DNA from: an uncultured Gemmatimonadales bacterium
Lineage (GTDB): Bacteria > Gemmatimonadota > Gemmatimonadetes > Longimicrobiales > Gaopeijiaceae
Direction: 5' to 3'
Length of the DNA: 64,000 nt
Assembly: GCA_963809895.1 (NCBI GenBank)
Contig: CAWELD010000003.1
Span: forward strand, 3,008,001 to 3,072,000
Made by a program: the position numbers and the translations under genes. The stretch's first letter is position 1. Each line of letters starts with the position of its first letter. The notes beneath the pieces are model-generated. The model saw only the letters and a list, made by a program, of their open reading frames with translations, was not told the DNA's origin and searched no databases. This document shows, piece after piece, positions 7,256-48,846 of the stretch.

Positions 7256-10200
7256 TCAGCGGGCGTGGGGCGCTCGCATGATCATGCGAGTCAAGCCACG
7301 GGCGCTGGCGAGAAGGCGGCGGACCAGGCCGACGTCCGGACCACCCTCGGGATGGAAGCGGACCGTCACCGTGGTACCGTGGGCGCGGTCACCGGTCACC
7401 GTCAACGTGGCCGCGATTTCCTCCGCGCGGCGAGCCATGCCGTCGAGTCCATGGCCGCGGTTCGGGACGGCGCTGTCGTACGCCTCCGTCGTCAGACCGG
7501 CGCCGTCGTCGCGCACCGTGAGCTCCCAGGCCTGACGACCGCTCGGCAAGAACGACAGGTCCACATGTCGGGCGCCGGAGTGCCGGGCGGCGTTGTGCAA
7601 CGCCTCGAGCCCGATGAGGAGCACGTTCCGCCGGACCGCGACCTCTGAACGCACGGAAGGCCACTCGTCGGGAAAGCGCGCCTGGAAGAGCGCCCCGTCG
7701 GCGAAGAGGCGTTCCCCGTGCTCGGCCAAGCGCGTGGCGAGTTCCTCCAGGGTGGCGGTGCGGGGGTCCAGCGACCAGACGATGTCCGACAGACTATGCC
7801 CCAGCTCCTCCGCCACGTCGGCGATCTCCCGGGCTGTCCGCCGGCGCTCCTCGCCTCTCAGATCGCCTTCCGCGATGACGCCCGAAAGGATCCCCACGCT
7901 CGCCAGGCCCGAGCCGACCTGATCGTGCAGATCCATGGCGATGCGGGTGCGCTGTCGCTCGAGGCCCAGGAGGTACCCCACCCGAGCGCGGTAGATGAGC
8001 ATGGCCACACCCGTGACTGTGAGGCTCATCAGTCCAATGAACCACCATGTGCCATACCACGGCGGCTGCACGATGAACGAGAATCGCGCCGCGGTCGACG
8101 ACCAGACGACGCCATCGTGCGACGCGCGGTACTCCACCTGGTAGCTCCCGGCCGGCAGGTCGACCCAGCGATAGAACGGCGCGCTACCGGACTCGGACCA
8201 GGGCCGATCCGGCCCCAGACGAACCTCCTGTCGCAGGCCGGTCCGATCGCGGAAGGAGAGCGCGGCAAAGCGTAATTCAAGGCGGTTCCGTTCGTGGGGG
8301 AGGATCAGGGACCGGTCCAGTGGGAACGGTTGACCGTCGACGCGTCCGTCCACCAGCGCGACAGGCGGAACGGGTGGGGTGTCGAACCGAGCTGCGACTG
8401 GAACGCGCGCCACCCCCCGGTTCGTGGCGAGCCAGATGTCGCCGTCCTCGCTCTCCACCAGATCGCTCGCACCGCCTGGGGGCACTCCCTGCCATGCCGA
8501 AAGCTCCTCCAGCACCTCCACGCCGCTCTCCCCTGAGGGCCGAGCCCGGAGAACTCCGGCACCGACGATCCATATGCCACCCCGCCGCGAGGGCACGACC
8601 TTGAACACGGTGCGCGTCGGGAACCCATCGATGAGCACGGGCGTCCACCGCTGGCCATCGAAGGCGTACAAACCCGACTGATCCGCTGACGCCCACAGAC
8701 GCCCGTCCGGGAGTTCGACCATGCTCGTGAGTTTCGCGGAGCCTGGCCCGTGCGCGCACGACCACGCGGAGTCGCGCTGGGCGAGGAGCGCGGCGCCTTG
8801 CGCGTGACACAGCCAGAGGCCGGCGCGGAGCCACAGCCGGTCGTGGCTGTCCTGAAGCAGCGCCATGTGCGGATCCTGCGAACCGGGCATGGGTTGCGGG
8901 AAGACGCGCTGGCCTTCCCGTCGACCGTGAACGTAGATCACCTGAGTAGGTGTGCCCAGCCACATGCCACCGTCCCGACCCTGCGTGCATCCGTCTACCT
9001 GCCCCGCCGGCAGGTCGGCTCTCGGCGTCACGGCCGTACCGTGAATCTCCAGGATCAATCCGTCGTCGGTCGCCGTCCACGCCGTCCCATCCTGTTCCGT
9101 ACAGATCCTCGACCGGCTCTCCCAGGTGGGGCCGTCGACCCGCCATCCCTCCTCCTCCCGGCGAATGGTATTCGGTCGGCCCCAGGTCATGACCCACAGC
9201 GTGTTCTCGCTGCGGGCCAGGAAACGGGTGTGCCGCGAACTCAACCCCTCCCGCTCGGAGAGAAGCCACGTGTCCGGCTCCGGGTACTGGTGGAGCCCGA
9301 TATAGGAGCCCAGCCAGAGGCTTCCCTCGCGGTCCACGAGCAGGGGTCCGCCCGACTCCAGTCCCTGCGCTGTCCCCATGACCTCCAGCTCTCCTCCCGG
9401 CCGCAGGGCGGCGAGAAAGCGGTCCACCGCCACCCAGACCGTGCCGCGCCGCTCGACGAGTCCGATGGCACGAGATTCCCACAACGGACCGGGGTCCGGA
9501 AGGAGTTCCCGCTCACCGGTCTCCGACACCTCGACGACCCGCGGGGACCGGAGCGACGTGACGTTGACGAGGATCAGGATTCGGCCGGCCTCGGGCTCCA
9601 CGGCGTCGGTGATGACGGCACCCTCGAAGAGGCGCTCCGGCGCCGAGTCCGACCGTACCCGCCACAGTCCTTCCCACGTGGCCACGAGGGCGCCACCGAA
9701 TCGGGTGGGTGCCACGAGGCGGGGGATCTCACCGCCGAAGGCTTCCGGCGCCAGGGAATCCCAGCCGTTTGACGACCGATAGACGACCATGTCCCCATAC
9801 AGCATCCACAGCGTCCCCTCGTTGCTCCAGGCCAGGGAGCCGTCGGCCCGCACCTCCTGCTCGCTCGGGGGCCAGGGCATGGGCACCGCTCGCACGCCGC
9901 TGCCGGTCACCTCGTACAGTCGGCCCTCGCCGTCCACGGCGGCCACGCGACCCTCCACCGAAACCGCCAGGTCCCGTACCGGGATGCCGATCTCCTGAGG
10001 AGCCCAGGGTCGGATTTCGCTGCCGTCGAAGCGATACAGTCCGCCCTCGGCGCCGATCCAGATGAACCCCAGACTATCCTGAACCAGCGCCCACACGGGC
10101 GGCGCCTTCAGACCGTTTTCCTGCGCGAATGTGCGCATGAATCGGTCCTGGCCCGAGAGCGGGTCGGGGTAGGCCGCCAGGTACGCGACCTCGACCCACA

Positions 10201-10345
10201 CTGCCGCCACCAGCAGGAGCGGGCGTGTGAGACGGCTGAGGCCCGAGAGGGGGACCACCTGCGACCTCGCGAACGGGAGGATCGACAACGAACTCCGGAT
10301 ACGTTCGGGAAGGACAACGTGCGACCGCAAGATGGAGCCACTCAC
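7256..10345 (-). CDS. Sensor histidine kinase: periplasmic beta-propeller + Y_Y_Y domain + HisKA_3/HATPase
   Basis: Reg_prop-type repeats (QDSLGFIWIG, DREGSLWLG, EDGDIWLAT), PPWYGTWWF TM, IAMDLHDQVGSGL H-box, EALHNAARHSGA, DDGAG, GHGLDGM. The true start may be somewhat downstream of 10345. Confidence 0.92.
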   Translation of the reverse strand: MSGSILRSHVVLPERIRSSLSILPFARSQVVPLSGLSRLTRPLLLVAAVWVEVAYLAAYPDPLSGQDRFMRTFAQENGLKAPPVWALVQDSLGFIWIGAEGGLYRFDGSEIRPWAPQEIGIPVRDLAVSVEGRVAAVDGEGRLYEVTGSGVRAVPMPWPPSEQEVRADGSLAWSNEGTLWMLYGDMVVYRSSNGWDSLAPEAFGGEIPRLVAPTRFGGALVATWEGLWRVRSDSAPERLFEGAVITDAVEPEAGRILILVNVTSLRSPRVVEVSETGERELLPDPGPLWESRAIGLVERRGTVWVAVDRFLAALRPGGELEVMGTAQGLESGGPLLVDREGSLWLGSYIGLHQYPEPDTWLLSEREGLSSRHTRFLARSENTLWVMTWGRPNTIRREEEGWRVDGPTWESRSRICTEQDGTAWTATDDGLILEIHGTAVTPRADLPAGQVDGCTQGRDGGMWLGTPTQVIYVHGRREGQRVFPQPMPGSQDPHMALLQDSHDRLWLRAGLWLCHAQGAALLAQRDSAWSCAHGPGSAKLTSMVELPDGRLWASADQSGLYAFDGQRWTPVLIDGFPTRTVFKVVPSRRGGIWIVGAGVLRARPSGESGVEVLEELSAWQGVPPGGASDLVESEDGDIWLATNRGVARVPVAARFDTPPVPPVALVDGRVDGQPFPLDRSLILPHERNRLELRFAALSFRDRTGLRQEVRLGPDRPWSESGSAPFYRWVDLPAGSYQVEYRASHDGVVWSSTAARFSFIVQPPWYGTWWFIGLMSLTVTGVAMLIYRARVGYLLGLERQRTRIAMDLHDQVGSGLASVGILSGVIAEGDLRGEERRRTAREIADVAEELGHSLSDIVWSLDPRTATLEELATRLAEHGERLFADGALFQARFPDEWPSVRSEVAVRRNVLLIGLEALHNAARHSGARHVDLSFLPSGRQAWELTVRDDGAGLTTEAYDSAVPNRGHGLDGMARRAEEIAATLTVTGDRAHGTTVTVRFHPEGGPDVGLVRRLLASARGLTRMIMRAPHAR
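7273..7290. promoter_or_regulatory. Perfect 18-bp palindrome, putative response-regulator binding site
   Basis: CTCGCATGATCATGCGAG, about 35 bp upstream of the response regulator start. A near copy lies at 10341-10358. Confidence 0.55.
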
Positions 10346-10688: not shown

Positions 10689-12635
10689 TCAGGGCAAGCC
10701 TCCTCCGGCCGGCAGCACCTGCACCTCCAGGCGACTGGCCTGGTCGGGCGTGTGATAGACCCGCTCGATGGCGACCACGAAGTCGCCGGCGTCGGCCTCG
10801 TAGATGTTCGGCACGTACGTCTGGGGATTGCGGTCGAAGGCCGGGAACCAGGTGCTCTGGACCTGGACCATGATGCGGTGGCCCGCCCCGAACGTGTGCA
10901 GCACGTCCTGGAGCGGGAACGTCACCTCGGTCACCCGGTTCGGCACGAAGGGCTCGGGTCGGTCGAAGCCGTTGCGGTAGCGCCCACGCATGATCTCGCC
11001 ACGCACCAGCTGCTGGTAGCCCCCGTAGTGCTCGGTGCTGTCCGGCCGGAACGGGCTGTCGGCTTCGTCCATGGGATAGACGTCGATGAGTTTGACCACG
11101 TAGTCCGATGCCGTGGTGGAGGTGCTCACGAAGAGGCGGGCCGTGATCTCGCCACCCAACGTGACGGCACTCTCCAACGGCGGGGTCCGGAACGTCACCA
11201 CGCCGCGGTTGTCGTCGAAGCAGCGCTGGTCGTCACTCATGTACTGGTACATGGTGAGACCCTGGATCGTGGGGATCTCACAGCGGCTGGGAACCGGACT
11301 CGCGGGATCGCTCACGTACTCCGAGAAGGCGCTCCCGGTGGAGGGGGGATCGAAGGACAACGCTTCGTCGGCGTTGAGGTAGAGCGACCGCGTGGTGGCG
11401 TCCCGCGCCGGCCACCCATCGAAGGAGCGCCACACCTTGGCACCGGTGTCGAACATGAGCGCCTCGGGAATCCCCACGGGCCCCTCCCCACCCTCCTTGA
11501 GGAAGTGGCGGAAGAACTGCGCCTCGACGTCGCGCTGGAACTTCACCTCCAGGGAATCCCCGAAGTAGATGTCGCCGTGAACGGTGTGCGTGATCCCCCG
11601 GCGCGACCATCCGCCGTGGCGAAAGGGACCCTCCACGATGGCGTTGAAGTTCTGCGGGTCGTGGGACTCGATGGTCTTGTAGACCTTGAGGGGTCCGTAG
11701 AGATCCTCGGCATCGAACCATCCCCCCACCGTCAGCATCGCGGGCATGTCACCACGCAGGTGCGGGCCCACGGCGCGCGCCTGCCAGAAGGCGTCGTAGT
11801 CCGGATGCTGGACGATCTCCTGCCAGAAGAAGTTGTCCTGGTAGTAGCGCTCGGTCGTGTTGCGCAGCGGCCCCAGCGCGAGTTGGAAGTCGTAGTCGTC
11901 GGGCAGACCGTCCTGCACCATGGAGGGTGCCCACCAGGCCTCGCTGGTGGGCTCGGGGTGCTGGATGCCGAACAGGGGATACGTGTAGAAGTAGCCCTGC
12001 GTGAGCGCGCCGTTGTGATGGAAGTCCTCGAAGTAGAAGTTCGTCACCGGCGCCTGTGGAGAGGCCGCCACCAGAGCCGGGTGGCCCGACAGGGCCCCCA
12101 TGGTGGTGAAGAAGCCGGGGTAGGAGATCCCCCACTGCCCGACCCGACCGTTGTTGTAATCCACGTTGTCGAGCAGCCACTCGATGGTGTCGTAGGTGTC
12201 GGAGGCCTCGTCCACCGCTGTGGGGTCCTGCGCTTTGATGGAGTCGGCGATGAAGGGGCGCACGTTGACCCAGGTGCCCTCGGACATGTAACGGCCCCGC
12301 ACGTCCTGGTACACGAAGATGTACTTGTCGCGCATCATGTACGGATCGGGCCCGACGATGGCCGGATAGGCGTCGGCGCCGTAAGGGGCCACCGAGTAGC
12401 AGGTCCGCTGCATCACCATGGGATACGTGCGGTCCGGCGAGGCGTCCCGGGGCGTGTAGACGATGGTGAAGAGCTTCACACCGTCACGCATGGGGATCTC
12501 ATATTCGTGCTTGACGTAGTTCGCCCGCACGAATTGCTCGCCGGTATCGGTGTCGGTCCGAGTCTGGGCGCAGGCCGTCGCGGCCAGCAGAAATGTCAGG
12601 GGGAGGGCAACCGAGACAACGCGTGGAGTCTTCAT
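10689..12635 (-). CDS. CocE/NonD family hydrolase (alpha-amino acid ester hydrolase-like), exported
   Basis: Signal peptide, IPMRDGVKLFT, QDVRGRYMSEG, catalytic GISYPG, GGWFDAED, C-terminal VQSTWFP.FDRNPQ. Confidence 0.93.
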   Translation of the reverse strand: MKTPRVVSVALPLTFLLAATACAQTRTDTDTGEQFVRANYVKHEYEIPMRDGVKLFTIVYTPRDASPDRTYPMVMQRTCYSVAPYGADAYPAIVGPDPYMMRDKYIFVYQDVRGRYMSEGTWVNVRPFIADSIKAQDPTAVDEASDTYDTIEWLLDNVDYNNGRVGQWGISYPGFFTTMGALSGHPALVAASPQAPVTNFYFEDFHHNGALTQGYFYTYPLFGIQHPEPTSEAWWAPSMVQDGLPDDYDFQLALGPLRNTTERYYQDNFFWQEIVQHPDYDAFWQARAVGPHLRGDMPAMLTVGGWFDAEDLYGPLKVYKTIESHDPQNFNAIVEGPFRHGGWSRRGITHTVHGDIYFGDSLEVKFQRDVEAQFFRHFLKEGGEGPVGIPEALMFDTGAKVWRSFDGWPARDATTRSLYLNADEALSFDPPSTGSAFSEYVSDPASPVPSRCEIPTIQGLTMYQYMSDDQRCFDDNRGVVTFRTPPLESAVTLGGEITARLFVSTSTTASDYVVKLIDVYPMDEADSPFRPDSTEHYGGYQQLVRGEIMRGRYRNGFDRPEPFVPNRVTEVTFPLQDVLHTFGAGHRIMVQVQSTWFPAFDRNPQTYVPNIYEADAGDFVVAIERVYHTPDQASRLEVQVLPAGGGLP

Positions 12636-12802: not shown

Positions 12803-13117
12803 TCAGACGGTGAAGCCCACCCCCGCCGCCACCGCCAGCAGGATGAGCACGACCCACGTGATCGGCCGCGCCCACACCGGACGCAGCTCTTTGCGCACGT
12901 CGTCCGCACGGTGCGGGTTGATGGCGATGGCCATGCGGCCCTCCTCGTCTTTCTGCCCTTCCACGAGGCGGTCCGACAGAAGCTGGTTCACGGCCTTCTG
13001 GTACTTCTCCGGATGCCTGTCGAAACCCGCGATGTCGGAAGGGCGGGTGAAGCCCGACCCGTTCCCGTTCTGGCGAGACCTGGAGAGCTCCCGGAGGATC
13101 GTCGTTCTCGGAGTCAT
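12803..13117 (-). CDS. Hypothetical protein, winged-helix-like N-terminus with C-terminal TM anchor
   Basis: 104 aa, normal codon bias, 'YQKAVNQLLSDRLVEG' helix/wing pattern, hydrophobic C-terminus. Confidence 0.65.
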   Translation of the reverse strand: MTPRTTILRELSRSRQNGNGSGFTRPSDIAGFDRHPEKYQKAVNQLLSDRLVEGQKDEEGRMAIAINPHRADDVRKELRPVWARPITWVVLILLAVAAGVGFTV

Positions 13118-13354
13118 CGGAATTGCGGCGGTTCAAGTTGGACTGGATTCGCGTGGTCCGTGCGATCCCGTACGAGATCAGACGCTCGCGGGTGTCAGAG
13201 AGTTGCGAAACGGGCGGGGGGAGGGCGGTCGCGCGTGCAGCACTGGTGACGGCCACGGTGATCGGCATGGTGGCGGCGGGCGGGGGCGTGGCGGGTGCGG
13301 CGGCCGGTGGCGGTCGCGATGCCGGTCGCGGCGGCCGATGGCGGTGGCGGCGCG

Positions 13355-13444
13355 GTCGCGGGCACGGTCATGGTCGCGGGCACGGCCATGGTCGCTGGCA
13401 CGGTGATGGTGGCGGGCACGGTGATGGTGGCGGGCACGGCCGGC
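13355..13444 (+). repeat. 18-bp tandem repeat, about 5 copies (GT[C/G]GCGGGCACGG[T/C][C/G]ATG)
   Basis: Units start at 13355, 13373, 13391, 13409 and 13427 (last one partial). Confidence 0.85.
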
Positions 13445-13446
13445 GA

Positions 13447-13631
13447 GGCTGCTGTCAATCAAGCAACCGCCCGCAATGTGACGACGCTCGCAGGGTTCGC
13501 GGCAATTATCGCGGCGTGGGCCTCACGCGAGCCCTGACCCCCTCTCCGGCGCTGGATTCACGGCAACCATCGCCGCGAATCGAGCAAGGTCCCGGGAAGA
13601 GGGCCGCCTTGCTCGCTTGACGGCAGCCGTC
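13447..13631. repeat. Phased repeat module 1 (inverted unit + three direct ~24-nt units), downstream of DUF559 gene 1
   Basis: Inverted unit 13447-13466. Direct units 13487-13510, 13548-13571 and 13608-13631, with the GGCA core at 13501, 13562 and 13622. Confidence 0.65.
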
Positions 13632-13749
13632 TCCCGCCTCTGGTGGGTCGTCGCCAGGATTCCCCGACTTCTCGCGGATGGCGGGTGCTCCGGCCATGCC
13701 GACCTCCCAGTCGCGCCAACCGCACGTCGCCCTCGACGCCAGTGCGCCT

Positions 13750-14706
13750 TCACCGCGAACGACCGTCGCCAATCCTGAGCGCGCGCATCCCGGCCAATGC
13801 CTGGCCGAGCCGGACAAGCAACTCCTCCCGCTCCACCGTCAGGTGCTTCCAGGTCACGCGCATCACTCGCAGACCGGCGGCGGTCAGCCGCATGTCCCGG
13901 TCGCGGTCCCGCTCGAAGGCCTCGGGAGACGAGTGGTAGTCGTATCCGTCGACCTCGACCACGAGTCCGGCGCCTCGCCAGAAGAAGTCGACTTCCATGC
14001 CTTCGACGCGCGCGTTGACCTGCGGCGGCGGGACGCGAGCCTTCCGCACCAGCCCGAGAAAGCGTGCCTCGGCCTCGGACCGGGTGAAGGCGGGTGAGAA
14101 TGCCGGCTGCAGGAGCTCGCGCAACAACGGCGCCCCGGGGCGATGCGCGTGGCGGCCCAGCAGCTCCTCCAGGCGAGCTTGCTCCAGAAGGCCGCCCCGC
14201 TTGGCGTTCGCCAGCGCCCGCTCCAATTGCTTCGGGCTCGCGACACCCGCCAAATCGATCAGCGTCCGGGCGGGGGTCGTCAGGGGGATCCTGGACTTCA
14301 TCGTGGTCTCGTCGTCGTTGAGCGTCGTCATCCTGTGGACGCGGACACCTGGACCGGGGGCGCGGCAGCCGCGCCGAATGCTCACGTCCAGCGGGGACCC
14401 GCGACCGGCGTCCGTGAGCATGGCCCACAGGACGGCGGCGCTGCGGTGACTCAGCGCCGCGGTCGGTCCGCACGCCAGCACGGCCGCCATCTCCCCGGCG
14501 TACCGTCCCGCCACGGGCCCGACCTGGTAGACCCCGCGGTACAGGGGGGTCAGGCGGCCACGCTGCACACGGTAGTCGATGCGGTGGCTCGCCACACCGG
14601 CCCGGAGCAGCTGGGTCCGCGTGACCACCCCGTGCTGACCTTCCGCGAGGGCGGTGATGATGCGGAATGGGTCGCGGGCGTCGCGGCCTGGAAGCTCCGC
14701 TCGCAC
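13750..14706 (-). CDS. AbiEi-antitoxin-like N-terminus + DUF559/Vsr-like endonuclease protein (copy 1)
   Basis: QHGVVTRTQL, RGVYQVG, LSHRSAA, TTPARTLIDLA, RSEAE, EVDF.W...LVVEVDG.DYH...F.RDR.RD. The GTG at 14706 gives 318 aa, matching the paralogue length; the ORF track extends to 14841. Confidence 0.88.
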   Translation of the reverse strand: MRAELPGRDARDPFRIITALAEGQHGVVTRTQLLRAGVASHRIDYRVQRGRLTPLYRGVYQVGPVAGRYAGEMAAVLACGPTAALSHRSAAVLWAMLTDAGRGSPLDVSIRRGCRAPGPGVRVHRMTTLNDDETTMKSRIPLTTPARTLIDLAGVASPKQLERALANAKRGGLLEQARLEELLGRHAHRPGAPLLRELLQPAFSPAFTRSEAEARFLGLVRKARVPPPQVNARVEGMEVDFFWRGAGLVVEVDGYDYHSSPEAFERDRDRDMRLTAAGLRVMRVTWKHLTVEREELLVRLGQALAGMRALRIGDGRSR

Positions 14707-14720
14707 CGCATCCTGGCGGC

Positions 14721-14906
14721 CAGTGCCGTCAACCCTGCGAGGACCGGGTCGGCTCGTGCGACTCGTAGGATTCACGGCAATTATCCCCGTCTGGGCTGCA
14801 GGAAGTCCGGAGGGGTGGGTCGCTATCAGGACCGACGGCACTATGTCCGGTCAGGACCGCATGGAGGCCGGCACAAGCCTCGCTTGCTCCATTGACGGCA
14901 ACGACA
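14721..14906. repeat. Phased repeat module 2, upstream of DUF559 gene 1
   Basis: Inverted unit 14724-14741. Direct units 14762-14785, 14823-14846 and 14883-14906, with the GGCA core at 14776, 14837 and 14897. Offset to module 1 is 1275 bp. Confidence 0.65.
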
Positions 14907-14957
14907 AGCCACGGGGCCTCGTCCTCACCGGCTTCCTCCCCACCCGGCCGAGAAGCT

Positions 14958-15058
14958 ACCCGCCGTCCCCGGGCGATCCCATGGGCGAATCGGTCGAATC
15001 CGCCCGCCGCGTTCGAACCCTGACCCGCCGCCCCCGGGCGACCCAATGGGCGAATCGG
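14958..15058 (+). repeat. 36-bp direct repeat pair separated by 29 bp
   Basis: ACCCGCCGTCCCCGGGCGATCCCATGGGCGAATCGG (14958-14993) and ACCCGCCGCCCCCGGGCGACCCAATGGGCGAATCGG (15023-15058), 33/36 identical. Confidence 0.8.
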
Positions 15059-15149
15059 CCGCGCACGCACGCCCGGCCACTCTCGCCCTCTCGCCGCCCG
15101 CACGCGCACCCTGGCCCACACCGGACCCACCCTTGCCCTCGCCCGCAGA

Positions 15150-16025
15150 CTAGGTGCCCGCCCCACCCCCTCCCGCCGCACCCGCGGCCACCGCGCCACG
15201 AGCGCCATCGGTCGCATTCCCCATCCCCAATCGACCCCGAAGCCGCCAGAAGATCACGGCCACCGCCACCGCCACGATGGCCAGCGCGGCGCCGAACTCC
15301 CCGATGACCCATTTCGTGGGGCCGGTGTCGACGGTGGCGGGGTCGAAGTAGCCCTGGATGTAGAGATTGTGGCTCGCGTGCAGGAGGGCTCCGGTCCACA
15401 GGCTTCCCGACTTCAGCCGCAGCCATGCCAGCGGAACGCTGATCCCCACGACCAGCACCACGAAGCAGAGCGTGGAATACCACCACGGCGTGCCGCCGTT
15501 GTAGTTGGCGAACACGATCAGGGGAACGTGCCAGGAGGCCCAGATGAGCCCGCTGATCACCGCCGTGCCGGTGAAGCTCGTCACCCGAGCCAGCTCCGGG
15601 ACCAACAGCCCACGCCAGCCGATCTCCTCGCCGGTGGCCGACCGGATGCTGAAGAGGGATCCCACCAACACGAACTGCCACACGCTCCCGGGACGCGGCC
15701 CCGACGGGCTCCCCAGGCCCGTGTACCAGACGGCGAGATAGGCCACCGACGCGTACCCGATCGGCAGCAGATAGGCCAGCACCTGCCATCGGGTCTTCCC
15801 CCACCGCCACCCCATCCCCCGGAGATTCCCCTGGAGGATCAGTCGTGTGAGGATCGCGGCCGTACCCGGCGACCACATGAGCAGCAGCACGTACCAGCCG
15901 CCGGCAGCGCCAAGGTCCCCGGCGCGGATGATGAGCGTGTAGAAGACGGCGCTGAAGGTGAAGGTGAGCGCCAGGTAGAGCCCGATCTTCCTCCATGCGT
16001 CCCTGCGTGCCTCTGAATCGGCCAT
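15150..16025 (-). CDS. CPBP (CAAX/Abi) family intramembrane metalloprotease
   Basis: GEEIGWRG, WASWH, HASHN motifs, multi-TM. Start MADSEARR at 16025. Confidence 0.9.
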   Translation of the reverse strand: MADSEARRDAWRKIGLYLALTFTFSAVFYTLIIRAGDLGAAGGWYVLLLMWSPGTAAILTRLILQGNLRGMGWRWGKTRWQVLAYLLPIGYASVAYLAVWYTGLGSPSGPRPGSVWQFVLVGSLFSIRSATGEEIGWRGLLVPELARVTSFTGTAVISGLIWASWHVPLIVFANYNGGTPWWYSTLCFVVLVVGISVPLAWLRLKSGSLWTGALLHASHNLYIQGYFDPATVDTGPTKWVIGEFGAALAIVAVAVAVIFWRLRGRLGMGNATDGARGAVAAGAAGGGGAGT

Positions 16026-16156: not shown

Positions 16157-19100
16157 CTACATCACCAGCCGGCAACCCTCCGGCTTGTCGCACTGGGGAT
16201 CGATGGCCGGCAGGTTCAGCCGCTCCAACTCGCGATTCACGTCGGCCAGATCACTGTTCCAGATCTCCTGCAGGCGATCGAGGTAGCCCTCGAGGCGATT
16301 GCTCATGATGCGGAAGATCTCGGGCATGTTGTTGTTGGGCCGGCCGTCACCACGCTCGGCCATGGCCATGAGGTTGGCCAGACGGTTGTTGACCCGGATC
16401 GGGAAGTTGAGCGGGTCCTGTCCGCTCTGGTTCTTCACCTGATAGATGTCGGCCTCCACCGCCGACGCGTTCTTGTCGAGCGCGTCTCCCGCCGAGTGCA
16501 GGCGTCCGTCGTCGGACTCCTCGAGGCGGTTGTCGAGCTGCGCCTTCACGCGCCGAATGGCGATGACGGCTTCGTTGGCGTCGTTCACCCGGTCCCGGAC
16601 CATGCGCGAGAACTCGTACTGCGCGCGCATGTCCGCGTCCGTCACCTCGGGGATCCAGGGATTCCCCTCGACCATGAGCGGCGCGGTCACCGTCTCGCCG
16701 TCCGCGGTGAGGCGCACGGTGTAGCGACCCGGAGGCGCCGTGGGGCCCATGGGCCGCGCTCCCCAGAAGATCATCCCCGGAAAGCTCTTCCAGGATTCGC
16801 CTTCCAGATTCCAGCGCAGCGTGTTGAGCCCGGCCTCGTTGGAGAGCCAGGGTCCGCCGCCGCCGAAGCGCCGCGGGCCTCCCCCGCCCTGCGCCGAGTC
16901 CGGCGTCGTGGTGTCGGGCACGAAGGTGCGCAGCACGGCGCCGGTCGAGTCGACGATCTCGAGCTTGGCGCTCTCGGCGGCGTCCTTCATCCACCAGGAG
17001 ATCGTGACGTCCGGCCCGGAGCGGACCGCAACGGGGGGATCGAAGAGCGTCACGTCGGCGGTGGCGATCTGCGCCATGGCCTGCCGCAACGGGGCGATGT
17101 CGTCCAGGACCCAGAAGCCCCGGCCGTGGCTGGCGATGACGAGCTCGTTCTTCTCCACCACCAGGTCCACCACCGGCAGGTCCGGCATGTTGTTGGTGAG
17201 ATCCTGCCACGAGTCCCCGTCGTCGTACGAGATGTACACGCCGTGCTGCGTGGCCGCGTACAGGAGCCCCTGTCGGTTCGGGTCTTCACGCACCGCGTGC
17301 ACGTAGGCGTCCGGACGGATACCCGACACGGTCTTCTCCCAGGTCTGACCGTAGTCGTGGGTCCGGTAGATGTAGGGCGCCTGATCGTCGAGCAGCGGGC
17401 GCTTGACCGCGACGTAGGCGGCGCCGTCGCTGAAGCTCGACGCATCGATCTGGCTGACGCGCCCGAAGTCGGGCATGTCGGGAGGGGTCACGTCGGTCCA
17501 GGTCTGGCCGCCGTCGCGGGTCACGTGGATCAGGCCGTCGTCGGACCCGGTCCAGATCACGTTCATGTTCCGCTTGCCCGGGGCCACCGAGAAGATCACG
17601 GCGTACACCTCGGGGCCGTTCATGTCATGCGTGATGGGACCGCCCGAGGGGCCCATGGTGCTGGGATCGTGACGCGTGAGGTCACCGCTGAGCGCGGTCC
17701 ACGTCCTACCACCGTCCTTGGACGACCACAGGCGCTGCGACGACGTGTAGAGCGTCTGGTGATCCACCGGCGAGAAGATGATGGGGAACGTCCACTGCCA
17801 GCGCTCGCGGATGTCCTCGGAAGGCTCGCCCGAATAAAACCACGGATAGGGATTCACCTCGCGGTGCGTGCCCAGGGCGTGATCGTACTTGTCGATGTAG
17901 CCGCCGTTGTTGTCGCCGGAGAAGAAGAGCTGGAAGTCGTTGGGATCCGGCGCGATGTAGCCCGGCTCACCTCCGCCCACGGCGTAGGCCTGGTTCATGG
18001 CACCGGCGGTGACCTCCCGGTACCCGTTGTCATCATCACCGCCACCACCGCCCCCGCCGAAGCCCCGTCCACCGCCGAGATTCCAGTCGTACGGCAGGCA
18101 CAGGGTGCTGTTGTCCTGCTGCGCGCCACACACGTCGTAGGGGATCTTGGTCGTGGTGATGACGTGGTAGAACTGGGCCGTGGGAAAGTCCTGGTCGGTC
18201 CAACTGGCGGCGGTGTCGGTGGAGACCGCACCACCCCCGTCGTTGGCCACCACGAGGTGGGCCGGGTCGTCGGGATCGATCCACAGGTCGTGGAAGTCGC
18301 CGTGCGTGCCCCGGATCGAGCGCATGGTCTCACCGGCGTCTTCGGAGCGGTAGAGCGACGTGTTCTCCATGTAGACCACGTCCTGGTCCATCGGATCGGC
18401 GAAGACGTTGGTGTAGTAGAAGGAGCGCTGGCGGATGTTGCGGCTGTCGTTCATCCGCTCCCAGGTGGCGCCGGCGTCGTCGCTCTTGAAGAGTCCCCCC
18501 TCGTCGTTCTCCACCAACGCGTACACGCGGTCGGAGTTGGCCCTGGACACCGAGACGCCGATGCGGCCCACCAGTCCTTCGGCCGGAAGTCCGGGATTGC
18601 GGGTGAGCTCCTGCCAGGTCTCGCCGCCGTCGGTGCTCTTGAAGAGCCCGCTCCCCACGCCCCCGCTGGACATCTTGTACTCGGTGCGGTAGGCCTGCCA
18701 CAGCGCGGCGTACACGACATCGGGGTTGTTGCGGTCGATGGAGATGTCCACGGCGCCGGTGCTGTCGTTCCGGAAGAGCACCTTGCGCCAGGTGTCGCCG
18801 CCGTCGGTGCTCTTGAAGACGCCCCGCTCGGGGCTCGACACGCCGTACTCGCCGAAGACCGCCGCGAACACGATGTCGGGATTCGTGGGATGGATGCGGA
18901 TCTTCGAGATCGCGTCCACGTCGCGGAATCCCACGTGGGTCCAGGTCTCTCCGGCGTCCGTGGATTTGTAGATGCCGTCACCGGGCATGATGTTGCCCCG
19001 GATCGCCGACTCGCCCATGCCGATGAAGACGATGTTGGGGTCGGTCTCGCTCACCGCCACCGCACCCACCGAGGCGCTGGTGACCTGATGATCCGTGACG

Positions 19101-19381
19101 GGGAACCAGTTCTCGCCGCCGTCGGTGGTCTTCCAGAGCCCACCACCGACGGCCCCGAAATAGGCGACATCGGGCTGGCCGCGCACCCCGGTGGCCGCGA
19201 TGGAGCGCCCGCCGCGATCGGGTCCGATGTTGCGCCACTGGAAGTTGCTCAGCACCGCGGAGTCGAGAACGAGGCCTCCGGAGGCCATTTGCTGAGCAGG
19301 AAGCACGCCGGGAGCCGCCAGCAGGGCGACCAGGGCAGCGGCGGATAGCGAAGGCGATGTGACGATTCGCGTTCGAGTCAT
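16157..19381 (-). CDS. VPS10/sortilin-like BNR-repeat glycosyl hydrolase, exported
   Basis: WRNIGPDRGGR, many S.D.G.TW Asp-box repeats, HGDFHDLWIDP, QQDNS, ASHGRGFWVLDD, C-terminal coiled coil. Confidence 0.9.
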   Translation of the reverse strand: MTRTRIVTSPSLSAAALVALLAAPGVLPAQQMASGGLVLDSAVLSNFQWRNIGPDRGGRSIAATGVRGQPDVAYFGAVGGGLWKTTDGGENWFPVTDHQVTSASVGAVAVSETDPNIVFIGMGESAIRGNIMPGDGIYKSTDAGETWTHVGFRDVDAISKIRIHPTNPDIVFAAVFGEYGVSSPERGVFKSTDGGDTWRKVLFRNDSTGAVDISIDRNNPDVVYAALWQAYRTEYKMSSGGVGSGLFKSTDGGETWQELTRNPGLPAEGLVGRIGVSVSRANSDRVYALVENDEGGLFKSDDAGATWERMNDSRNIRQRSFYYTNVFADPMDQDVVYMENTSLYRSEDAGETMRSIRGTHGDFHDLWIDPDDPAHLVVANDGGGAVSTDTAASWTDQDFPTAQFYHVITTTKIPYDVCGAQQDNSTLCLPYDWNLGGGRGFGGGGGGGDDDNGYREVTAGAMNQAYAVGGGEPGYIAPDPNDFQLFFSGDNNGGYIDKYDHALGTHREVNPYPWFYSGEPSEDIRERWQWTFPIIFSPVDHQTLYTSSQRLWSSKDGGRTWTALSGDLTRHDPSTMGPSGGPITHDMNGPEVYAVIFSVAPGKRNMNVIWTGSDDGLIHVTRDGGQTWTDVTPPDMPDFGRVSQIDASSFSDGAAYVAVKRPLLDDQAPYIYRTHDYGQTWEKTVSGIRPDAYVHAVREDPNRQGLLYAATQHGVYISYDDGDSWQDLTNNMPDLPVVDLVVEKNELVIASHGRGFWVLDDIAPLRQAMAQIATADVTLFDPPVAVRSGPDVTISWWMKDAAESAKLEIVDSTGAVLRTFVPDTTTPDSAQGGGGPRRFGGGGPWLSNEAGLNTLRWNLEGESWKSFPGMIFWGARPMGPTAPPGRYTVRLTADGETVTAPLMVEGNPWIPEVTDADMRAQYEFSRMVRDRVNDANEAVIAIRRVKAQLDNRLEESDDGRLHSAGDALDKNASAVEADIYQVKNQSGQDPLNFPIRVNNRLANLMAMAERGDGRPNNNMPEIFRIMSNRLEGYLDRLQEIWNSDLADVNRELERLNLPAIDPQCDKPEGCRLVM

Positions 19382-47898: not shown

Positions 47899-48846
47899 AT
47901 GAACCTCGGCACCACCGCAGTGGCTGATACCGATGCCATCATTCGAAGGTGCGCTCAGCCGCAACAGGGGCTGGTGACCAGGTGCCAACTCCTTCGTGCC
48001 GGGGTCCCGGCACACGCCATCGCGTATCGCCTCAAGCGCGGACGTCTGCGTGCCATCCACCGGGGTGTATACCAGGTCGGCCCCGTCGCGGGTCGGTACC
48101 AACGGGAGATGGCCGCGGTGCTCTCCTGTGGCGAGGGCACCGTGCTGAGCCATGCGACCGCAGCAGGCCTGTGGGACCTGCGGCGACCACCTCCCCGCGG
48201 CGCAGCCGTGCACGTGATCGCCCCCCGTACGCGCCGGGGCGATCGAGAGGGCGTCCGAATCCACCGGGTCCGCAGTCTGGATGCCGAGGAGATCACGCGC
48301 CATCGTGGTCTTCCCGTCACCACGCCAACCCGCACGCTCCTGGACGTTGCCGCGGTCTGGGAGCCGCACCACCTCGAACGAGCTCTCGCCAGGGCGGAGC
48401 AGCACCGGCTGGTGACGCTCGACGATGTCCGCGCCGTCATCGAGCGTCATCCGACGCGTCGGGGGACACCCAAGCTGAGATCCCTGCTCGAGATGACCGA
48501 TGCACCGGCGTTCACGCGGTCCGAAGCGGAGGCACGACTGTTGGACATGCTGCGTCGGGGGGGATTGCCCGCTCCGAGGGTCAACGCGGTGATCCGGGGC
48601 CTCGAGGTCGACTTCTTGTGGCGCGATTACCGCCTGGTGGTGGAAGTGGACGGTTTCGTCTATCACCGCGGTCGCCCGGCATTCGAGAACGATCGACGTC
48701 GGGACGCCAGGCTAATCGCCTCCGGTTACCGTGTCATACGCTTCACATGGAAACGGCTCGTGAAGACGCCCGAGATGGTGTTGGTCGAGCTGGCCCAGGC
48801 GCTGGCCGTGCACGCCGGGGCGACCGGTCGCGTCGAAGGCAGGTGA
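47899..48846 (+). CDS. AbiEi-antitoxin-like N-terminus + DUF559/Vsr-like endonuclease protein (copy 2)
   Basis: Shares long blocks with copy 1: RGVYQVGPVAGRY, EMAAVL.CG, LERALA, PAFTRSEAEAR, EVDF.WR, LVVEVDG..YH, R.TWK. Confidence 0.9.
   Translation: MNLGTTAVADTDAIIRRCAQPQQGLVTRCQLLRAGVPAHAIAYRLKRGRLRAIHRGVYQVGPVAGRYQREMAAVLSCGEGTVLSHATAAGLWDLRRPPPRGAAVHVIAPRTRRGDREGVRIHRVRSLDAEEITRHRGLPVTTPTRTLLDVAAVWEPHHLERALARAEQHRLVTLDDVRAVIERHPTRRGTPKLRSLLEMTDAPAFTRSEAEARLLDMLRRGGLPAPRVNAVIRGLEVDFLWRDYRLVVEVDGFVYHRGRPAFENDRRRDARLIASGYRVIRFTWKRLVKTPEMVLVELAQALAVHAGATGRVEGR

Follow-up and report, generated by a model that had tools for sequence, protein, structure and literature searches.

The window, that is the whole 64,000-nucleotide stretch of DNA analysed here, carries a gene in which an AbiEi-type part is fused to a Vsr/DUF559-type nuclease part and which is bracketed by two elements of one repeat family, designated A. 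A second paralogue of this gene lies further along and is adjoined by an element of family B. The features, with a few neighbours, are as follows.

7256-10345, minus strand: sensor-kinase-like gene (by eye)
10689-12635, minus strand: S15 peptidase gene
12803-13117, minus strand: 104-aa gene directly downstream of the left element
13354..13443, plus strand: 18-nt GC-rich tandem repeat in five copies, abutting the left element
13450..13625, no strand: left element, family A, 176 bp, downstream of the nuclease gene
13450 (minus), 13487 (plus), 13510 (minus, decayed), 13548 (plus), 13571 (minus), 13608 (plus): 18-nt arm cores of the left element
13505-13509 and 13566-13570: 5-nt linkers of the left element
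13750..14706, minus strand: fusion gene of AbiEi and Vsr/DUF559 parts; its uncertain start was put at GTG 14706 by a crude caller
14724..14900, no strand: right element, family A, 177 bp, upstream of the nuclease gene
14724 (minus), 14762 (plus), 14785 (minus, decayed), 14823 (plus, weak), 14846 (minus, decayed), 14883 (plus): arm cores of the right element
14958..15073, plus strand: two 51-nt direct copies, 65 nt apart, directly past the right element
16157-19381, minus strand: gene for a BNR/sortilin-repeat protein
47938..48807, plus strand: second paralogue of the fusion gene, 52% identity
48933..49092, no strand: family B element adjoining the second paralogue, with the same type of AT linker and different arms

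The open frame of the fusion gene (13750-14841, minus strand) runs to 14841, through the right element, and 17 bp separate the end of this element from the likely start codon. The gene has a host-like GC3 (0.87) and stands free between intact-looking ORFs, without intron, intein or split host gene; next to it lie a CPBP protease-like gene and the 104-aa gene. The latter gave no match in Pfam, NCBIfam or PADLOC and is covered by one RNA-run contig, a coverage that is no sign of transcription. An adjacent AbiEii/DUF1814 toxin gene is absent, matches to AbiEii being located elsewhere in the genome. The true abiE operon of the genome has one dyad upstream (by eye). At G000:C3:1879299-1881600 an abiE operon lies between two near-identical LytTR-like gene pieces, which suggests insertion with duplication, and the match to its toxin gene is split in two.

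Pfam registered AbiEi_4, MTES_1575 and DUF559 in the open frame, so the domains assigned in the sequence-only reading of this DNA were confirmed, while a PDB sequence search with the single protein gave no match. A query of 306 aa (13750-14670) was modelled with a pLDDT of 93.6. Model residues 1-194 superimpose on S. agalactiae AbiEi (Z 13.7, rmsd 4.0, 183 residues aligned), the similarity to M. tuberculosis Rv2827c being Z 9.5; residues 198-297 superimpose on the catalytic domain of I-Bth0305I (Z 13.0, rmsd 2.4, 96 aligned), with Z 11.2 for Vsr. The protein is predicted to combine the full AbiEi two-domain fold with a nuclease domain of the I-Bth0305I/Vsr (EDxHD) type. Residues E201, D228, E239, D241, H246 and D255 are invariant across 120 homologues, and D228/H246/D255 align to D196/H213/D222 of I-Bth0305I, whose chain has alanines at the first two; judged by these alignments, the catalytic residues of the predicted nuclease are intact. 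The middle domain (model residues 55-193) resembles nucleotidyltransferase folds (MenT1, Z 8.6), with T131, R135 and D139 invariant.

The sequence-only reading had described each flank of the gene as one inverted unit followed by three direct units separated by intervals of ~37 nt. The coordinates of the units, their offset of 1275 bp, the spacings 51/61/60 (left) and 52/61/60 (right) and the identity counts 21/24, 16/18, 17/20 and 15/18 were all found in the sequence, but the layout turned out to be different. Each module consists of six alternating half-sites of ~20 bp, that is of three inverted pairs with a 60-61-bp period and 5-bp AT linkers (half-site offsets 0, 37-38, 60-61, 98-99, 121-122 and 158-160), and two inverted arms per side, some of them decayed, had been overlooked. 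Scores of the arm matrix, in order of the arms, were 19, 21, -14, 20, 21 and 22 on the left and 23, 21, -7, 2, -2 and 21 on the right. Since each ~37-nt interval contains an inverted arm and leaves merely 15-16 nt of GC-rich free sequence per 60-61-bp period, the intervals are not spacers. Only 1.5e-6 to 8e-6 of genome positions reach the leave-one-out scores of seven of the eight units. The remaining one, at 14837, is weak, with 6e-4 of positions reaching its score.

A matrix built from these units was iterated on the 5.3-Mb genome with two block-shuffled genomes as a null. It detected 24 clusters in the genome and none in either shuffle; stand-alone copies thus exist, and both modules in the window are ordinary members of a dispersed family. 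The genomic clusters share the offsets -0, +37, -60, +98, -121 and +158, and the fit to 24 copies gave a length of 175-178 bp with 20-nt arms, 15-16-nt loops and 5-nt linkers, two of the fitted copies being decayed on one side. Besides, the genome holds one solitary 56-bp monomer and, at two loci, three-copy tandem arrays. The mean identity of copies is 55% (18 dereplicated copies); their length is nevertheless fixed. Terminal arms are conserved best (mean score 20 versus 6 for the innermost and inner ones), and the linkers read ATTAT/ATAAT in 17 of 36 cases and ACTAT/ATAGT in 7 of 36. Before the counts, 5 near-identical or partial copies were left out of the arm fit and 6 out of the identity and later analyses; 7 duplicate loci and partial matches were also left out.

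A GTAG or CGTC tag precedes the palindrome in REPs. No conserved GTAG is seen at the ends of family A elements; CGTC is present 3 nt inside the terminal arms, where it belongs to the paired arm rather than to an unpaired tag. The terminal arms also carry an outward TTGAC hexamer start. The first base of the linker, A, is retained at the element ends in 15/36 cases and AT in 7/36. No consistent flanking direct repeat that could be a target-site duplication was found in 18 copies, which are old, so that its decay is possible. Genome-wide, 19 of 52 elements have tandem repeats less than or equal to 150 bp away, as compared with 28 of 421 control gaps. A crude caller predicted 4335 genes, which make the genome 85% coding; of 25 copies, 24 do not overlap a called gene, the exception being a weak call on the 18-nt tandem repeat. 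Among 21 loci, 6 are divergent, 10 tandem and 5 convergent, the corresponding shares of 1113 long gaps being 39%, 51% and 10%. At G000:C10:560396, C3:836092, 3309760, 3606612 and others, many elements adjoin PadR-like regulator or ABC-permease-like genes (names from sequence reading), which are multicopy here.

The genome contains five full-length paralogues of the nuclease gene, one frameshifted. Searches with their flanks revealed three further dispersed families, all intergenic: B at 3 loci, C at 15 and D at 19-20. Every one of them has a copy next to a paralogue, which is flanked in this way on a single side. Their arms differ from those of family A, whereas the design of a dyad with a short centre and the period of ~60-62 bp recur, and 12 of 37 copies lie between convergent genes, compared with 10% of background gaps. 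The sequence-only reading had named absence of the module from other paralogues as a ground for its refutation; this ground applies in part, as the family A module is absent beside them but different modules occupy the place. Families C and B stand side by side at G000:C3:539751-540088, downstream of a guaA-like gene. Elements of family D (for example C10:37302-37484) have two central dyads 62 bp apart and terminal inverted repeats unlike the dyad arms, with tandem repeats adjoining 12/19 copies. Orphan dyad pairs with a 62-63-bp period, outside families A-D, were seen at G000:C3:1853909, 1998823 and 2629386 and at C4:23306; they are possibly relics of lost paralogues.

Orthologous sites without elements were found in congeners. 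The gap between the mdh-like and moaA-like genes (these and similar names were assigned by reading the sequences) is 417 bp with the element versus 136-310 bp in all 17 congeners, none of which has an arm match. Both genes of the NUDIX/ETF-QO-like pair are in view in 6 of 19 congeners and the element in none of the six: the gap is 335 bp here and 22-110 bp in the four congeners where the genes are adjacent, while in the remaining two other genes are inserted. For the family C element 5' of an mraZ-like gene, the gap is 596 bp versus 317-437 bp in 15/15 congeners with both genes (16 fetched). Such comparison at the sequence level shows the presence of elements to be lineage-specific, congeners being other species, and by parsimony the elements would have been gained at the occupied sites. 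Genes neighbouring the nuclease locus are rare in relatives. Contigs from public runs, short and shallow, were uninformative: no piece covers the whole locus, no joint shows deletion of the gene or an element, and among the pieces listed for the one RNA run none falls on the gene or the elements. In the mdh-moaA gap (L234) the element lies directly past a conserved TTGACA-type promoter hexamer resembling the arm core; together with the outward TTGAC of the terminal arms, this layout may reflect a target-site preference or hybrid promoters.

Homologues of the protein form a family of at least 4099 clusters, this being the number within E 1e-20 among 8000 candidates scored. The names of the homologues suggest Gemmatimonadota/Longimicrobiales as the host group. 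Homologues are distributed patchily, being present in 20 of 60 relatives with several broken copies. A model of family A based on sequence, with 41 candidates scored per genome, matched 7 of the 60 relatives, namely 5 of 20 with the protein and 2 of 40 without it. In three of them (G052, G044, G054) family A-like elements stand directly beside the gene; in G005 (87% complete) and G042 (96%) elements are present and the gene was not found, profile search included. Among 179 homologue loci, motif scores above 14 were registered near the gene for A in 17 cases (1 distal), for C in 4 (1 distal) and for D in 3. The four motif C loci constitute one clade (FastTree support 99) in which all four members and no other of the 179 loci carry the motif. 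Three of the five strongest motif A loci group together (support 83), while other A labels are scattered, and the 18 A/B labels require 12 changes on the tree. At L167 a tandem repeat has expanded in frame within the AbiEi domain of the homologue, which is flanked on either side by near-identical family A elements; L186, L081, L215 and L220 have near-identical tandem 60-61-nt units, that is a recent duplication of monomers.

A motif-free test for phased dyads used 124 of the 179 loci, those with short flanks being left out. Dyads scored at 49/124 loci versus 0/124 shuffles, 4/90 distal stretches and 0/150 random gene flanks, and the period was 60-63 in 40/52, although some high scores are simple tandem repeats. 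At 75 of the 124 loci no array exceeds the threshold. Both sides score in 13 only, which again goes part of the way towards the refutation named in the sequence-only reading. Across 61 loci with dyad pairs, the closest proteins have half-site identities of 0.68 (3 pairs) and 0.51 (12 pairs), and more distant ones 0.31-0.36. Of 244 half-sites, 161 have T at -11 from the dyad centre and 160 have it at -10. Overall, motif and protein covary weakly (Mantel rho -0.12, p 0.047), and motifs track protein clades in part.

Based on these data one can assume, with a probability of about 0.58, that the protein is of predicted AbiEi-type plus Vsr/EDxHD-type and that the 176-bp elements are likely its own duplex binding arrays, which it likely cuts and thereby helps to spread. 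Related genes have different repeats of their own, so that binding and spreading of the repeats by the enzyme is likely; the system would be a counterpart of REP/RAYT that is apparently undescribed. The idea of a nuclease with a cognate repeat system, and of a REP/REPIN-like element in particular, gained support from the dispersed stand-alone copies, the empty orthologous sites and the paralogues' own families, the links between nuclease and repeats being correlative throughout. Each ~20-bp arm would be occupied by one AbiEi module, in the way that AbiEi and Rv2827c sit on their operators, and a period of 60-63 bp, close to six turns of the helix, would set successive dyads on one face of DNA. 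Over the AT linker two nuclease domains could then come together and make a nick or a break, in keeping with the frequent retention of the first linker bases at element ends. When the host repairs such breaks, by copying or slippage, it may copy, amplify or insert units, and by this route no target duplication and frequent tandem repeats at element edges are to be expected. The upstream element probably also represses the nuclease gene, holding the nuclease low. Protein and motif would drift together, so that several non-overlapping protein-repeat pairs can share one genome. The weak step of this scheme is insertion at new sites, for which the protein shows no obvious chemistry; the nuclease domain alone gives no strand-transfer step, and insertion must therefore rest on host repair.

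A rather unlikely alternative is that the protein binds the arrays for some host purpose, such as chromosome organisation, self marking or sequestering of a nuclease that attacks unmarked incoming DNA, and that the arrays arose by rare duplication and were kept by selection. Copies that are 55% alike yet preserve exact spacing and terminal arms suggest selection on binding, the host-like GC3 agrees with it, and AbiEi and Vsr-type domains do occur in conflict systems according to the accessible text of PMC3710099. Homologue matches were absent from phage records and limited among plasmids to one record with 27% identity. Turnover, however, fits better with the patchy presence and broken copies of the gene, the lack of any neighbouring gene family in more than 6 of 176 homologue loci, the lineage-specific occupied sites and the four parallel families in one genome.

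Recognition of a single-stranded hairpin, in folded DNA or at an mRNA end, with nicks at hairpin mismatches as by Vsr at T/G, is improbable. The elements do fold better than shuffles (mean z -3.0; z < -2 in 13/18), but this is expected of any inverted repeat, and the excess of convergent sites in families B, C, D and A, which would also suit hairpins, is given above. Pairing of arms with their own partners did not exceed pairing with the arms of other copies in family A, either for hairpins (p 0.74, 0.94 and 0.38) or for linker dyads (p 0.88 and 0.96). Nominal significance was reached in 2 of 13 pair tests (arms 1-6, p 0.024; arms 2-6, p 0.003), whereas under a symmetric null p was 0.10 for arms 1-6, and 0.67 and 1.0 for families C and D, so hairpin, linker and nested pairs gave no within-copy complementarity (p 0.10-0.96 for A). 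A strand-consistent bias of G.T mismatches appeared in one of three tests (p 0.015), but it tracks flank composition (rho 0.53) and yields p 0.15 on independent sites. AbiEi-type domains are, moreover, known to bind duplex operators (PMC7319586). Spacing and consensus are conserved and pairing is not, and the arms can therefore be read as protein sites on duplex DNA; the absent copy-specific pairing favours double-stranded binding sites over RNA or hairpins.

It is still less probable that the arrays are operators of a transcriptional regulon whose regulator has an incidental nuclease domain. The geometry resembles that of the Rv2827c operator, in which, according to the accessible text of PMC7319586, four repeats of 23 bp are set apart by gaps of 13 and 4 bp, giving a 63-bp period. 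The right element ends just 5' of the likely start codon, one such dyad precedes the true abiE operon, and the terminal arms carry the TTGAC start. A phased operator array, as proposed earlier, is accordingly a fair description of the anatomy, but not of a regulon: copies occur downstream of genes and between convergent genes, the flanking genes have no common function, orthologous promoters do without the element, and the catalytic residues are invariant among homologues. Consensus sigma-70 promoters or terminators were not found in 13300-15200.

A repeat-spacer array of small guide RNAs for an RNA-guided nuclease, to which the fixed 60-61-nt period, variable intervals and adjacent nuclease had pointed, is very improbable, because CRISPR/TIGR-like arrays have direct repeats, spacers matching foreign DNA and processed RNA, whereas the repeats here alternate in orientation and are dispersed, the free loops of 15-16 nt are GC-rich, unique in the genome (6/6 without a second match) and unmatched in phage sequences, compensatory pairing is lacking, Rfam gave no credible match in 13100-15200 and the model contains no RNA-binding domain.

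Among known systems the closest is REPIN-RAYT. As far as the accessible text of PMC5581495, PMC8266576 and PMC3733652 goes, REPIN-RAYT systems or REPtrons also combine an enzyme gene of low copy number with short palindromic repeats, which flank it and are dispersed between genes as well; several co-evolving enzyme-repeat pairs and tandem arrays of elements are likewise shared. The present enzyme, however, is a fusion of AbiEi with a PD-(D/E)XK nuclease and not an HUH tyrosine transposase: PF01797 (Y1 transposase, RAYT/TnpA-REP) had no match in this 95%-complete genome, as compared with 6 of 14 control genomes. There is no compensated hairpin either, and 176 bp with six spaced half-sites stand in place of 20-40-bp REPs. 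The system would work like REPIN-RAYT but departs from it in the enzyme. AbiE antitoxins such as S. agalactiae AbiEi and Rv2827c share the whole two-domain fold of the model, and their operators have alternating inverted repeats of ~20-23 bp with a short and a longer gap, AbiEi monomers binding 23-bp inverted repeats 3 bp apart (PMC7319586, accessible part); the period is 63 bp there and 60-61 bp here. They differ from the present system by the fused nuclease, the missing adjacent AbiEii toxin and the arrays found also downstream of the gene and at ~20 other loci. The catalytic fold and the E-D-x-H-D residues are those of I-Bth0305I and Vsr (PMC3239194, PMC3424549, as far as seen in these texts), and I-Bth0305I, a dimer, footprints ~60 bp of pseudopalindromic DNA and cuts at its centre (PMC3239194, the same portion). 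In contrast to these enzymes, there is no intron or intein, the presumed own sites lie at the flanks, the DNA-binding module is different and there is no conserved neighbouring methyltransferase. MITEs are short non-coding dispersed elements with terminal inverted repeats, target-site duplication and a DDE transposase partner; family A, likewise short, non-coding and dispersed, shares with them the best-conserved inverted ends and the empty orthologous sites, but has internal phased dyads and neither a consistent target-site duplication nor such a partner.

No description of the system was found in the literature, subscription journals being outside the coverage of the search. Repeats without a dedicated transposase are noted in PMC3733652, whose accessible text mentions neither DUF families nor Actinobacteria; DUF559 and MTES_1575 are placed with Vsr in PMC3424549 and PMC3710099, and repeats are not mentioned in the accessible portions of either. 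The part of an AbiEi-AbiEii preprint that was available had nothing on a fusion of AbiEi with a nuclease. The system is real, general and apparently undescribed in print, while its mechanism is inferred. New are the coexistence of four families, the orthologous sites without elements, the negative outcome of the pairing tests and the link to operator geometry. With a chance somewhat short of even, it may represent a new class of selfish DNA, in which an operator-binding protein derived from an antitoxin and joined to a domain of the homing-endonuclease type spreads its own operators without a transposase; thousands of DUF559/AbiEi genes would then own private repeat families, and the protein-motif pairs would be a catalogue of long-site nucleases.

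The finding offers a role for a very large family of unannotated genes. It also offers a candidate for what drives the dispersal of palindromic repeats where a genome has no RAYT, a question posed for CGTC repeats in the available part of PMC3733652. The match with the geometry of AbiE operators suggests a route from a regulator-operator pair to a mobile repeat system. Four protein-motif families within one genome make specificity directly testable by cross-binding, and if the enzymes cut sites of 40-60 bp, nature would have supplied in this family a collection of rare-cutting nucleases whose targets can be read.
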